The notes beneath the pieces are model-generated. The model did not search any database. It was not told the DNA's origin and saw only the letters and a program-made list of their open reading frames with translations. A program made the position numbers and the translations under genes. Source: Minisyncoccota bacterium (GTDB taxonomy: Bacteria; Patescibacteriota; Minisyncoccia; UBA6257; JAKLIH01). Taken from it: a DNA stretch of 27,634 nucleotides. Location of the stretch: NCBI GenBank assembly GCA_028691405.1, contig JAQUZI010000001.1, positions 6,015 through 33,648 of the forward strand. The letters are read 5' to 3'. Positions within the stretch are counted from its first letter, which is position 1. Every line of letters begins with the position of its first letter. This document shows positions 1 to 17,532 of this stretch, one piece after another.

Positions 1-66
1 ACTGGTGAAGAATGTATTTCTGGCGATCAAGATATAATTTTCTATTTCGAGAATTATTCCGAATAA
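1..66 (+). CDS. 3' end of an upstream gene, product unknown (partial)
   Basis: Frame 1 reads TGEECISGDQDIIFYFENYSE then TAA at 64-66, followed by a terminator. Too short to identify. Confidence 0.5.
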   Translation, partial: TGEECISGDQDIIFYFENYSE

Positions 67-77
67 AATTGAATAGG

Positions 78-109
78 AAACTCTCTGTGGTAACACAGGG
101 AGTTTTTTT
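78..109 (+). terminator. Intrinsic terminator
   Basis: Stem aaactctctgtg/cacagggagttt (one G-U), GTAA loop, followed by a T-tract. Confidence 0.85.
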
Positions 110-115
110 ATTGTA

Positions 116-144
116 TTGACAATTCAAGAATGATTTGATAGTAT
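116..144 (+). promoter_or_regulatory. Sigma70-type promoter with extended -10
   Basis: TTGACA (116-121), 17-nt spacer, TG at 136-137, TAGTAT (139-144). Confidence 0.7.
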
Positions 145-149
145 TTGGT

Positions 150-304
150 TGTGCAGATCTCTGCACATTTGTACATTTTAATTTTAACTAGACAATGTAG
201 GGCTATTGTCTAGTTAACAAACTTAAAACTTATTAGCCAATTCGTGTATCGTGTTATACCAAAACCGCCAAGACCTTAGGGTTATATGTCTTGGCGGTAT
301 TTTA
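150..304 (+). ncRNA. Candidate small RNA or structured leader
   Basis: Lies between the promoter at 116-144 and an 11-bp terminator-like hairpin (264-298). Contains hairpins at 150-167 and 184-217 (13 bp). No credible ORF. Confidence 0.45.
264..304 (+). terminator. Intrinsic terminator-like hairpin
   Basis: accgccaagac (264-274) pairs with gtcttggcggt (288-298), followed by attttatt. Confidence 0.7.
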
Positions 305-333
305 TTGACTTTTACTATCAGATATGATAATAT
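305..333 (+). promoter_or_regulatory. Probable str operon (rpsL) promoter, extended -10
   Basis: TTGACT (305-310), 17-nt spacer, TG at 325-326, TAATAT (328-333). Confidence 0.7.
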
Positions 334-461
334 TTAATTACCTATACAATAGGGTTATGTTAACGTGCTAAGACATAATTTATTTTACAAAATGGCTTTG
401 TAAAATATGTATTTTTATATATTTTATTAAAATATTTAATTAATTTTTAAGTTTTTGACAT

Positions 462-875
462 ATGCCAACTATTAACCAATTGGTCAAAAAAGGAAGAAAA
501 GTTATTACTAAAAAAGCTAATGCTCGTGCATTAAAGAATAGTTTTAATATCAAAAAGAACAAGCCTTCTTTTTATGACGCACCATTTAAAAAAGGTGTTT
601 GTACAAAAGTATTTACTACTACACCTAAAAAACCAAACTCAGCTTTACGTAAAGTTGCTCGTGTTAAATTATCTAATGGCGAAGAAGTAACCGCCTATAT
701 CCCTGGTATTGGCCACAATCTTCAAGAACACTCTGTTGTTTTAGTAAGAGGTGGTCGCGTAAAAGACTTGCCAGGTGTTCGTTATCACATTGTTCGTGCT
801 AAATATGACACCACTGGTGTTGAAGGTCGCAAGCAACAAAGAAGCAAATACGGTGCTAAAAAGGAAAAGAAATAA
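462..875 (+). CDS. rpsL: 30S ribosomal protein S12
   Basis: [33 protein letters not shown] motifs. Confidence 0.99.
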
Positions 876-904
876 CCTTTTAATTAATTTTAAAATTTAT
901 TAAT

Positions 905-1369
905 ATGGATCTTATCGTTGATGAAAAAAAATATAAAGCTGATGGTAAATACAAAAGCCCTATTGTAACTAAATTAATCAATATGATTATGGAGTGTGGT
1001 AAAAAAACCATTGCTCGTAGAAATATTTATAAAATGATTGATATTCTTGAACAAAAAACCAAAAATGATGGGTTATTTGTTTTAGAAACAGCTTTAAAAA
1101 ATGTTGGGCCAACGCTTGAAGTTAAAAGTAAAAGAATTGGTGGTGCTAACTATCAAGTTCCTGTTATTGTTTCAGGTCAAAGACGCTTAACTTTAGCTAT
1201 GAGATGAATTATTGATTTTTCTCGTTCTCAAAAAGGAAAACCAATAAGTGAAAAATTAGCTAATGAAATAATTGCAGCTTTTAGAGGTGAAGGTAATGCC
1301 ATTAAGAAAAAACAAAATGTTCATAAAATGGCTGAAGCTAATAAAGCCTTTGCTCATTTTGGCAGATAA
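905..1369 (+). CDS. rpsG: 30S ribosomal protein S7 (154 aa; TGA 1205-1207 = Trp)
   Basis: RIGGANYQVP, LAMR-W-II, HKMAEANKAFAHF; stop TAA at 1367-1369. Confidence 0.97.
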
Positions 1370-1400
1370 TATATTTTAACAAATATTTAAAAATTTAATC

Positions 1401-3518
1401 ATGTCTCAAGAATATCCTCTTGAAAAAATACGTAATATTGGTATTATTGCTCATATTGATGCTGGTAAAACAACTACATCAGAACGTATTTTGTTTTATA
1501 CTGGTCTTTCTCATAAAATTGGAGAAGTTCATGAAGGCGCAGCTGTTATGGACTGGATGGAACAAGAAAGAGAAAGAGGTATTACTATTACCTCAGCTGC
1601 TACTACTTGTTTTTGAACAACAAGTTATAGAAATAATGATGAAAATTATAAATATAAAATCAATGTTATTGATACTCCCGGACATATTGACTTTACCGCT
1701 GAAGTTCAACGCTCTTTGCGTGTTTTAGACGGTGCTGTTGTTGTTTTTGACGGTGTTGCTGGCGTTGAGCCTCAATCAGAAACTGTTTGAAGACAAGCAG
1801 ATAAATATTTAGTCCCTCGCTTATGTTTTGTCAATAAACTTGATCGTATGGGTGCTGATTTTGACAATGATTTAAATATGATCAAAGAACGTTTAACTCC
1901 TAATGCTGTTGCTTTAACTATTCCAGTTGGCAAAGAGGCTAATTTTGAAGGTGTTATCGATTTGATTAGAATGAAAAAAGTTAATTTTGAAGGTCAACTT
2001 GGTGAGAAATTAGTATTATCTGACATTCCAGAAGATATGAAAGAAATATCTCAAAAGAGAAGAGATGAATTGATTGAAAAAATTGCAACAGAAGACGACT
2101 CCTTAATGGAAAGATATTTAAATGGAGATACCAATTTTACCGAAGAAGAATTAAGAGCATCTTTAAGAAAATCAGTTATTGATTATAAAATTGTTCCTGT
2201 TTTATGTGGTTCTGCATTTAAAAACAAAGGTGTTCAATTAATGCTAGACGCTGTTGTTGACTTTTTACCAAGTCCATTAGATGTTAAACCCGTTGAAGGA
2301 GATAATCTTAAAGGTGAAACCATTGTTCGTAAGGCAGATGAAAAAGAGCCATTTTCTGCTTTAGTATTTAAAATTGCTACCGATCCATATGTTGGTACAT
2401 TATCATTTTTCCGTGTTTATTCTGGTAGATTAACCAAAGGTTCTTATTTATTAAATTCAAATAAAAACAGTCAAGAGAGAATTGGTCGTATTCTCCGTAT
2501 GTTTTCTAGCAAAAGAGAAGACATAGATGATATTGAAGCTGGTGATATTGCTGCTACTGTTGGTTTAAAAAATACCAAAACAGGTGATACATTGTGTGAT
2601 CCAGATCATCCAATTGTTTTAGAAAACATTTCTTTTCCTGATCCAGTTATTTGATTGAAAGTTGAACCTAAGACTAAAAGCGACCAAGATAAAATGGGGG
2701 AAGCTTTGAAAAAATTATCTGATGAAGACCCTACCTTCCAAATTAAAACTGACGAGGAAACCAATGATACTATTATTGGTGGTATGGGTGAATTACATCT
2801 TGATATTTTAATTGATCGTATGAAACGCGAATTTAATGTTGAACTTAACTCTGGTAAGCCACAAGTTGCTTATCGAGAAACAATCAATGGTACAGCTGAA
2901 GCTGAAGGTAAATATATTCGTCAATCTGGTGGTAAAGGCCAATATGGTCATGTTTGATTAAGAGTTGAACCACTTGAAAGAGGCAAAGGCTTTGAGTTTG
3001 TTAGCCAAATTAAAGGTGGTGTTATTCCACAAGAATTTATTTCTTCAGTTGAAAAAGGATCTAAAGAAGCTACTGATAAAGGTATTTTAGCTAATTACCC
3101 AATGTCTGATTTAAGAGTTACTCTTTATGATGGATCTTTCCATGACGTTGACTCATCTGATTTTGCTTTTAAAATTGCCGCTTCTATGGCTTTTCAAGAT
3201 GCAGCTAAAAAAGCTCAACCAGCTATTCTTGAGCCAATTATGAAATTAGAAGTAACTACTCCAGAAAACTTTTTAGGTGATGTTATTGGTGATATTAATT
3301 CCAAACGTGGACGTATTGAAAAAATGGATGAACGCATGGGGTTACGTATTGTTGATTCATTAGTTCCACTTTCAGAGATGTTTGGTTATGCAACCAATTT
3401 AAGATCATTTACTGAAGGTAGAGGTACATTTAGTATGGAATTCCATAGTTACCAAGAGGTTCCAAAAAATATTGCTGAGGATATTATTTCTAAAAGAAAA
3501 CCAACTGCAAAAGAATAA
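1401..3518 (+). CDS. fusA: Elongation factor G (705 aa; 4 TGA = Trp)
   Basis: [48 protein letters not shown]. One continuous frame when TGA at 1614, 1788, 2652 and 2955 is read through. Confidence 0.98.
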
Positions 3519-5183: not shown

Positions 5184-5212
5184 TTGACAAGTTAAAAATA
5201 AAATGCTATAAT
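5184..5212 (+). promoter_or_regulatory. Perfect-consensus sigma70 promoter with extended -10
   Basis: TTGACA (5184-5189), 17-nt spacer, TG at 5204-5205, TATAAT (5207-5212). Confidence 0.85.
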
Positions 5213-5218
5213 GAACAT

Positions 5219-5462
5219 ATCTAACAACAGCAATGAGTGTGAATAGCAAAGTATTTGTTTATTCAAGCGAGAACATAAATTTGTATTATAAATATGAATT
5301 TTGTTGTCGCAAGAATTACTTGACGACAGTTGTACTTTTTACCTCGTCTACGTAGTGTGAACAAAATAGTTTGTTTTTGAAAGACGAGCAAATACCAAGC
5401 TATTTCCTTGATAAGAGGGGGATTCATTTACCCCTATCAAGGTCACACTCTTAGCTGTTGAC
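5219..5462 (+). ncRNA. Unassigned structured RNA candidate (~240 nt)
   Basis: 5' and 3' ends pair (5225-5231/5454-5460 and 5235-5242/5443-5450), enclosing further helices: 5243-5247/5399-5403, 5251-5257/5389-5395, 5305-5313/5319-5328, 5343-5349/5382-5388, 5406-5413/5435-5442, 5417-5420/5431-5434. Starts just after a consensus promoter. Confidence 0.7.
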
Positions 5463-16260: not shown

Positions 16261-17532
16261 ATGATTAAAAATTTAATTAAACTTTTCAAAAATAAAGAAT
16301 TGCGTAAAAGCATGCTAACTATATTTTTCTGATTACTTGTTTTTAGATTAATTGCTGCAATTCCTATACCTAATGTTGATTTAAATCAGATCAAAACCTT
16401 TTTAGAACAAAGTAAAGTTTTTGGTTTATTTGATATATTTACTGGAGGTGCTTTTGGTAATTTATCCATTGGTCTTCTTGGCGTTAGTCCTTACATTTCA
16501 GCTTCCATTATTATGCAATTAGTTGTTATTATTATTCCATCACTTAAAGAAGTTTTTCATGAAAATGGGGAAGAAGGGCGTCGTAAATTTGAAAAATGAA
16601 CTAAGTACTTAACGTTACCTTTAACTGTTTTGCAAGCTGTTGGTATTTTAAATATATTGCGTATGCAAAAGATCATTACCATTAATTCTCCACTTGAATT
16701 ATGACGTAACGTATTGCTTTTAACTGCCGCTGCTTTTGTAATCGTATTTATTGGTGAAATTATTACTCAGAAGAAATTGGGAAATGGTATTTCTTTAATC
16801 ATCTTCTCTGGTATTATTATTAGTTTACCTCAAAGCATATTTGCTACTGTTATGTCAGCTCAGACATTATTTGCTTGAATTGGTGTTGCTTTATTCTTCT
16901 TAATTATGTTAATTATGGTTGTTGCCATTGTTTATTTAACTGAAGGAGAAAGAAGGCTTACAGTCTCATATGCTAAACATGTTCGTGGAAATAAAATGTA
17001 TGGTGGCGTTACAACCTTTTTACCATTAAAAGTTAATCAAGCCGGTGTTATTCCTATTATTTTTGCTTTATCTATTTTAACTTTTCCCGCTTTGATTAGC
17101 CAAATGTTAGCCACTACTAATTTGACGTTTTTAGTTACTGCCTCTAATTTTCTTACGACTTTAATTGAAAACAAAGTATTTTATGCCTCAATCTATTTTA
17201 TCTTAGTATTTCTATTTACCTTCTTCTATACATCTATTACTTTTGAACCAAAAGAAATATCAGATAATTTACAAAAAAATGGTGGGTTTATTCCTGGTTA
17301 TCGCCCAGGTGAAAATACTGTTTCTCATCTAACTAAAGTATCTAAGAAGATAACATTGTTTGGTGCTATATTCCTAGGCCTAGTTGCTGTTTTACCAATG
17401 GTGCTTGAAAAAGTTACGAATGTTACTACTTTTGAAATTGGTGGAACATCGTTGTTACTTATCGTTGCTATTGCCATTGAAATCAAGAATGCAATTGAAG
17501 CTCAGCTAGCGATGAGGGAATATGACTACTAA
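16261..17532 (+). CDS. secY: Preprotein translocase subunit SecY (423 aa; 3 TGA = Trp)
   Basis: LGVSPYISASIIMQL, GEEGRRK, GNGISLIIF, LPLKVNQAGVIPIIFA, FIPGYRPG, GGTSLLLIV. Confidence 0.98.

Follow-up and report, generated by a model that had tools for sequence, protein, structure and literature searches.

The region upstream of rpsL

The window analysed here is a 27,634-nt stretch of contig C34 (positions 6015–33648) in the source assembly GCA_028691405.1 (G000; 509 kb, 54 contigs, 56% complete, 28% GC). Positions are those of the window unless a contig is named. Between a glutaredoxin-like gene and rpsL lies a stretch, here called the unit, which carries a promoter of its own (P1), three hairpins and no ORF with a ribosome-binding site (Table 1). 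A preliminary description of the window had listed a terminator, an extended −10 promoter, three hairpins and a separate rpsL promoter at this locus, and every one of these elements was found where it had been placed; for the upstream terminator, given there as 78–109, the terminator scan sets the stem at 75–108. The same scan finds no other terminator-like site in positions 1–1000, where 0.3 would be expected. Comparisons were made with other species of the genus (G001, G002, G003 and the sister species G004) and with a metagenome contig from a near-identical strain (L038). Genomes are 0.4–1.3 Mb in all 60 relatives sampled from the same order. Membership of the Patescibacteria is probable, as indicated by the EF-Tu atlas cluster and by the named relatives closest in RpsL.

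Table 1. Features of the locus from the glutaredoxin-like gene to rpsL (window positions).
Feature	Position	Strand	Description
Glutaredoxin-like gene	64–66 (stop codon)		Small, membrane-anchored; upstream neighbour of the unit
Intrinsic terminator of the glutaredoxin-like gene	75–108	+	15-pair stem, then T-run; marks the 5' boundary of the unit
P1, promoter of the unit	116–144	+	TTGACA-17-TAGTAT with TG (extended −10); 10/12 consensus matches
Hairpin 1	150–167	+	tgtgcaga-tc-tctgcaca; palindrome spanning the predicted start (about 151); 5'-terminal stem-loop if transcribed
Hairpin 2	184–217	+	Perfect 13-bp stem (184–196/205–217, 100% complementary); 8-nt loop with TAGGGCTAT (198–206)
Unpaired 15-mer	246–260	+	tatcgtgttatacca; identical in G004
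Terminator of the unit	264–304	+	11-bp GC-rich stem (264–274/288–298); 13-nt loop with TAGGGTTAT (277–285); then ATTTTA
P2, rpsL promoter	305–333	+	TTGACT-17-TAATAT with TG; 9/12 matches; outside the unit
rpsL 5' leader	340–410 (334–410; runs to 461)	+	Three conserved hairpins; third copy of TAGGGTTAT at 350–358
rpsL	462–875	+	S12 gene downstream of the unit

The window begins directly after a scaffold gap (a run of N), and the same 127 nt stand on either side of that gap, at window positions 1–127 and at C34 5888–6014. L038 passes through the gap region as a single continuous copy. The 127-nt repeat is therefore an unmerged scaffold join rather than biology, and the glutaredoxin-like gene is the true upstream neighbour of the unit.

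TGA is a sense codon in this genome, as rpsG and fusA stay open only when it is read through. Eight TGA positions in fusA (1401–3518, encoding EF-G) and secY (16261–17532) were set against PDB homologues, where they face three Trp, one Tyr, two His, one Ala, one Val and no Gly. Because Trp is faced most often and Gly never, a Trp-like reading (code 4) is favored over the Gly reading used in Gracilibacteria and Absconditabacteria. Of tRNA-Trp, the 56%-complete assembly yielded just the CCA form, and no UCA-anticodon tRNA was seen. The passages returned by a full-text literature search held nothing on TGA as Trp in Patescibacteria. The 16S rRNA gene (C1, about 400–1990, minus strand) has a 3' tail past its last helix that reads gaaacatttctttt, with no CCUCC anti-Shine-Dalgarno word. 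Shine-Dalgarno sequences are absent before the rpsL, tuf and glutaredoxin-like gene starts and are present at a few other genes.

Promoters of the unit and of rpsL

In this AT-rich DNA, a loose promoter scan was not above chance (6 sites versus 5.7 in shuffles). The whole 509-kb assembly was therefore scanned with a stricter promoter word, TTGAC[AT]-N12-14-TGnTAnn[AT]T, in comparison with five block shuffles. The strict word occurs 40 times in the assembly as compared to 1, 7, 2, 2 and 2 times in the shuffles, and 35 of these occurrences, P1 and P2 among them, fall in the 11% of the DNA that is non-coding. Of the 35 intergenic promoters, 28 are oriented towards the next gene. This genome-wide enrichment makes P1 and P2 credible promoters for the organism, and the separate rpsL promoter proposed in the preliminary description is recovered by the promoter scan at 305–333. 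An antisense promoter beneath the 15-mer was also considered; on the opposite strand the sequence is TGGTATAAC, without the final T or any −35 element, and such a promoter looks unlikely by eye.

Hairpins and folding of the unit

The three hairpins were verified at 150–167, 184–217 (perfect over 13 bp) and 264–298 (11 bp). Folding of 145–304 gives −50.8 kcal/mol against −30.5 ± 3.6 kcal/mol for shuffled sequences (z −5.7), and none of 200 shuffles folds as well. The body of the unit without its terminator has a z of −4.0, and the G004 copy reaches −4.3 in full and −3.2 for the body only. Folding is just as strong for the reverse strand (z −6.8), and the strand was thus assigned from the promoter and the T-run instead. 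The terminator stem is predicted at −18.7 kcal/mol and is followed by ATTTTATT; it escaped the terminator scan because the loop limit of that scan is 8.

An Rfam scan, which had been proposed in the preliminary description, was run with 4227 families over the whole window and matched none at gathering score; at E ≤ 10, positions 1–520 returned only noise far below threshold. The models for 6S RNA (RF00013) and SRP RNA (RF00169) found nothing in G000 or in five further genus genomes. Mimicry of rRNA was assessed against the organism's own 16S, and 110 of 500 shuffles were as good as the leader and 160 of 500 as good as the unit.

Distribution among relatives

BLAST of 110–461 against 61 genomes of the genus, family and order gives a full-length match only in G004 (88%), and in G003 a match to the leader part only. 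A covariance model built from G000 and G004 and run over 151 genomes of the order matches these two species alone; all its remaining matches have E values of at least 0.3, and the unit was not found in the 149 other genomes. A metagenome scan with a hairpin-2 word returned 14 loci with one true homologue, L038, which comes from the same species, is 99.4% identical to G000 and has no differences from it in 115–900. None of 24 listed sequencing runs is recorded as RNA. Contigs from four DNA runs contain no new variants of 137–246, and one run has a G004-like contig over 247–667. A contig scan with RpsL returned only distant named relatives (the best matches 66–74% identical, Patescibacteria included) and no loci useful for the unit.

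The rpsL upstream regions of ten family members were compared, as the preliminary description had suggested; the leader proved conserved in the five genus species with an assembled locus, and the unit appeared only in G004. The region is assembled in G001 and G002, and the unit is absent from both. The G003 contig breaks off some 50 nt before the promoter, and a search of the rest of that assembly did not find the unit. In G006 and G010, family members from another genus, rpsI directly adjoins rpsL. The restriction of the unit to the G000/G004 lineage argues that it is a recent addition, lying outside the ancestral rpsL control region.

Conservation between the sister species

Fourfold sites of rpsL, rpsG, fusA (5' part), the glutaredoxin-like gene and rpsI served as the neutral benchmark for G000 versus G004, with 251 of 324 sites (77%) identical. 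P1 is identical at 28 of 29 positions (p = 0.006 versus neutral) and the hairpin stems of the unit at 58 of 64 (p = 0.005), whereas its loops, linkers and tails are identical at 69 of 100 (Fisher p = 0.001 for the stems being higher); these tests on the unit use a single species pair and small counts. The preliminary description had held that the stems should be conserved in related genomes, and in G004 they are indeed kept above the neutral level. The terminator region (264–304) is identical at 38 of 41 positions. Taken as a whole, the body of the unit (145–263) reaches 77% identity when gaps are ignored and 66% when they are counted, no higher than neutral. The 15-mer at 246–260 is identical in the two species, and the surrounding linker as a whole matches at 30 of 47 positions.

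The stem changes between the two species all retain pairing. In hairpin 2 of G004, each arm has lost one base at the matching position, which shortens the stem by one pair, and the loop carries one change. The 5' arm of the terminator has two substitutions, each of which gives a G·U pair. The comparison rests on one informative relative, the third copy being near-identical, and it contains no compensatory substitution pair in the stems of the unit. Template switching can yield symmetric changes in perfect palindromes without selection. The overall pattern is the signature that would be expected of a structured RNA, as read from a single species pair.

A candidate small RNA gene

The analysis establishes that the signals described above are present, that this kind of promoter is a genuine one in the genome, and that promoter and stems exceed the neutral level of identity. 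On balance, the unit is probably a young, lineage-restricted, stand-alone small RNA gene. According to this reading, the sigma-70-type extended −10 promoter P1 would start transcription near 151 and the terminator at 264–304 would end the transcript directly ahead of the rpsL promoter. The product would be a non-coding RNA of about 150 nt, composed of a 5'-terminal hairpin, a long perfect hairpin and a terminator hairpin with an unusually large loop. The linkers between the hairpins evolve freely, except for a single-stranded 15-mer that is conserved. From these observations we infer that the unit is transcribed and that selection acts on the RNA rather than on DNA hairpins. More speculatively, the RNA might act in trans via its loops or the 15-mer, and would do so without Hfq or CsrA.

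Local rearrangement and a possible by-product origin

Between the glutaredoxin-like gene and P1, G004 carries an insertion of roughly 400 nt, pieced together from the end of its contig C2 (L025 2240–2518) and the start of its contig C1 (L052 1–130), the join between the two contigs being inferred rather than assembled. The insertion contains a 14-codon frame behind a strong Shine-Dalgarno sequence, as well as several hairpins. It ends in a second copy of the unit's terminator stem plus TTGACTT, after which comes a duplicated relic of the 3' end of the glutaredoxin-like gene, fused directly to P1. This arrangement shows that terminator–promoter modules have been copied around at the locus, and it thereby leaves room for the unit to have arisen as a by-product.

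In such an account the unit would be left over from local duplications and deletions that shuffle promoter and terminator modules, perhaps transcribed yet functionless, with hairpins that persist because the element is young and palindromes self-correct. We judge this to be rather unlikely. Several observations do fit it: the confinement of the unit to two sister species, the divergence of its body at the neutral rate, the second terminator stem, −35 element (TTGACTT) and gene relic within the G004 insertion, and an identical 12-nt tail-plus-35 word ahead of both P1 and P2. The search for a target or partner was likewise negative. Tested against 478 start regions, the 15-mer pairs at best with −13.5 kcal/mol, 17 of 60 shuffled seeds do as well, and the top matches are −10 boxes; CsrA (PF02599) and Hfq were each found in none of five genus genomes (G000, 56% complete, and four others of 95–98%). 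Against a by-product stands the excess of promoter and stem identity over the 77% neutral level while loops and linkers drift. The body also has no significant similarity to the sequences from which it might have been copied: local alignment with the rpsL leader is no better than with shuffles (261 of 1000 as good in G000 and 832 of 1000 in G004), and for the G004 insertion 255 of 1000 and 455 of 1000 shuffles are as good.

The rpsL leader and the question of attenuation

The preliminary description offered two readings of the unit, a stand-alone small RNA or an attenuated leader that provides regulated read-through into rpsL. The first is supported by the unit's own signals, kept stems and lack of a conserved ORF; the second did not hold up, as the following comparisons indicate. 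The P2 motif (TTGACTTT...TG.TAA.AT) and a leader of roughly 75 nt with three hairpins are kept in all five genus species with an assembled locus. Across the five-species alignment the leader has 22 pairs, one of them compensatory (A-U in two species, G-C in three), and its loop words are conserved; between G000 and G004, positions 334–461 are identical at 126 of 128. No Rfam leader family matched the rpsL leader at gathering score. We regard it as a candidate ribosomal-protein autoregulatory leader; rpsL leader candidates have been presented before (Eckert & Weinberg 2020, PMC7247131).

G001 and G002 have rpsL with this promoter and leader but no unit, so the conserved candidate regulatory RNA of rpsL sits downstream of P2. 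A full consensus promoter, at 305–333, intervenes between the unit and rpsL. In the nascent RNA, up to the point at which the terminator's 3' arm would be made, nothing stable or conserved was found to compete for its 5' arm, only weak 4-bp local helices that differ between the two species. With promoter and leader present in relatives that lack the unit, and with no antiterminator, a role of the unit as rpsL leader or attenuator is not supported.

The attenuated-leader reading, in which P1 would be a tandem upstream promoter whose read-through past a leaky terminator adds to or conditions rpsL operon expression, thus appears improbable to us. The unit lies on the same strand as rpsL and immediately adjoins its promoter, the atypically large 13-nt loop and the interrupted U tract could permit leakage, and the same rare 9-mer recurs in the loops of the unit and in the leader. 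Yet rpsL is served by its own consensus promoter and by a leader that is conserved in relatives without the unit. In neither species is the 5' arm of the terminator sequestered by an alternative structure, and the stem that would have to leak is GC-rich, 11 bp long and worth −17 to −19 kcal/mol.

A word shared by the unit and the leader

The 9-mer just mentioned, TAGGG[CT]TAT, occurs seven times on both strands of the 509-kb assembly. Four occurrences lie within ORFs. The other three, all of them intergenic, share the rpsL strand and fall within 155 nt, at 198 in the loop of hairpin 2, at 277 in the terminator loop and at 350 in the rpsL leader, where the word sits at the junction of the first two leader hairpins. 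An equally improbable triple arises in 3 of 300 dinucleotide shuffles of 145–461. All three copies differ between the species in the G-run, which is GGG throughout in G000 and AGG, GG and GGA in G004. In G004, the loop on the second copy of the terminator stem is a plain 4 nt, which would fit an insertion of the word into the loop. In addition, the 3' arm of hairpin 2 (203–217) is complementary to the first bases of the leader (338–352) at 13 of 15 positions.

The shared word suggests a functional link between the unit and the leader. It is conceivable, though we think it a long shot, that the RNA is a lineage-specific partner of the str-operon leader, tuning ribosomal protein synthesis in trans either as a decoy for a leader-binding factor (for example autoregulatory S12 or S7) or by pairing with the leader's 5' end.

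Operator and coding alternatives

The palindrome of hairpin 1 (TGTGCA-N6-TGCACA) could instead be an operator at the predicted start that binds a dimeric repressor of P1, in which case the hairpins would matter as DNA. Its half-sites are kept in G004 at 12 of 12 positions, its 6-nt centre is changed at three of six, and it overlaps the predicted +1. The same pattern fits an RNA stem with a free loop equally well, however, and an operator would leave hairpin 2 and the terminator unexplained. A regulon was sought for either palindrome of the unit; each occurs once in the assembly, and for the operator palindrome this single occurrence (in an assembly 56% complete) gives no sign of a regulon. With no candidate regulator identified either, we consider an operator very unlikely.

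A small protein gene, read from a 20–22-codon frame at 146/152 and possibly from a leaderless mRNA, is scarcely credible: the frame is co-linear in both species and ends inside hairpin 2, and several highly expressed genes here also lack a Shine-Dalgarno sequence, but this sole co-linear frame (22 codons) begins with TTG or GTG and has no ribosome-binding site, its nucleotide divergence equals the neutral rate, and the roughly 10 of 22 residues common to G000 and G004 fall mostly under the conserved stem of hairpin 2. The earlier statement that the unit holds no usable ORF is thus upheld, as no conserved frame exists in G004. A type I toxin was dismissed for the want of a conserved short ORF in the unit.

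Similar units elsewhere in the genome

In what is half a genome, some ten of the 35 intergenic consensus promoters open onto an ORF-free stretch that is closed by a terminator. Behind several of these units come a second promoter and then a highly expressed gene, as seen for the glutaredoxin-like gene, rpsL, tuf, 23S rRNA and a gene on C51. Elsewhere in the set, promoters precede 16S rRNA, RNase P RNA and a tRNA. The consensus promoters of further ORF-free stretches of about 35–230 nt with terminators lie at C27:9402(−), C45:8107(+), C46:947 and 3756(+), C1:9925(−), C51:5391(+) and C1:10812(−), and one such unit is present in two identical copies on C46. Given that the 6S and SRP models came up empty in six genus genomes, some of the ORF-free units may be diverged housekeeping RNAs.

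Two further examples lie close by. Between rpsI and the glutaredoxin-like gene (L001 641–760, that is, C34 about 5254–5375), a second orphan unit of about 75 nt has a consensus promoter followed by a short hairpin and a terminator, ahead of the glutaredoxin-like gene's own promoter. In L038 its small hairpin is replaced by a different, still pairing sequence (gcccatgggggc versus gcctatatcataggc), and G004 keeps the G000 form. At 5184–5462 of the window, upstream of tuf, the tandem layout of rpsL recurs: a stretch of about 245 nt has its own promoter and no ORF, and a second promoter, for tuf, comes after it. BLAST gave no similarity between this stretch and the unit.

Bacteria of the candidate phyla radiation, which have tiny genomes and depend on hosts, are thought to have minimal regulation. 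If units of this kind are real RNAs, RNA regulation in these organisms would be richer and turn over faster than annotation suggests, and would work without Hfq or CsrA. The unit described here offers a compact test case: its signals are strong, one unpaired stretch is conserved, and a shared motif may link it to the rpsL leader. Nothing on comparable small RNAs from the candidate phyla radiation appeared in the passages returned by a full-text literature search.

Comparison with known systems

Ribosomal-protein leaders and attenuators, such as the L4-controlled S10 leader, resemble the unit in being structured RNAs, closed by a terminator, that immediately precede a ribosomal protein operon. 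The unit differs from them by the full promoter that separates it from rpsL, the conserved leader downstream of that promoter, and the lack of an antiterminator or an Rfam leader match.

Both 6S RNA and small SRP RNA are of a similar size class, and each was rejected as an identity for the unit. Neither model matches; the unit forms three separate hairpins and not the one long bulged duplex of 6S RNA, and hairpin 2 is a perfect stem with no internal loops, unlike small SRP RNA. A housekeeping RNA would not be missing from most members of the genus, and this patchy distribution, together with the three-hairpin shape, excludes a housekeeping role.

Sponges of the CsrB/RsmZ type share with the unit a short G-rich word repeated in the apical loops of hairpins (here 198–206 and 277–285). 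CsrA sites have a GGA core. The unit, in contrast, has just two loop copies with a GGG core, and the five genus genomes searched contain no CsrA gene.

The closest likeness is to stand-alone small RNA genes that carry a sigma-70 promoter and end in a Rho-independent terminator, a generic class with many lineage-specific examples. The unit stands apart from these in that it has no Rfam match and that neither Hfq nor CsrA turned up in the five genus genomes searched. In common with them, it has its own promoter of a type used across the genome, a Rho-independent terminator before the next promoter, a predicted length of ~150 nt, protective 5' and 3' hairpins, no conserved ORF, a narrow range and fast-evolving linkers. 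On present evidence, the unit is therefore best described as an ordinary, narrowly distributed candidate small RNA.
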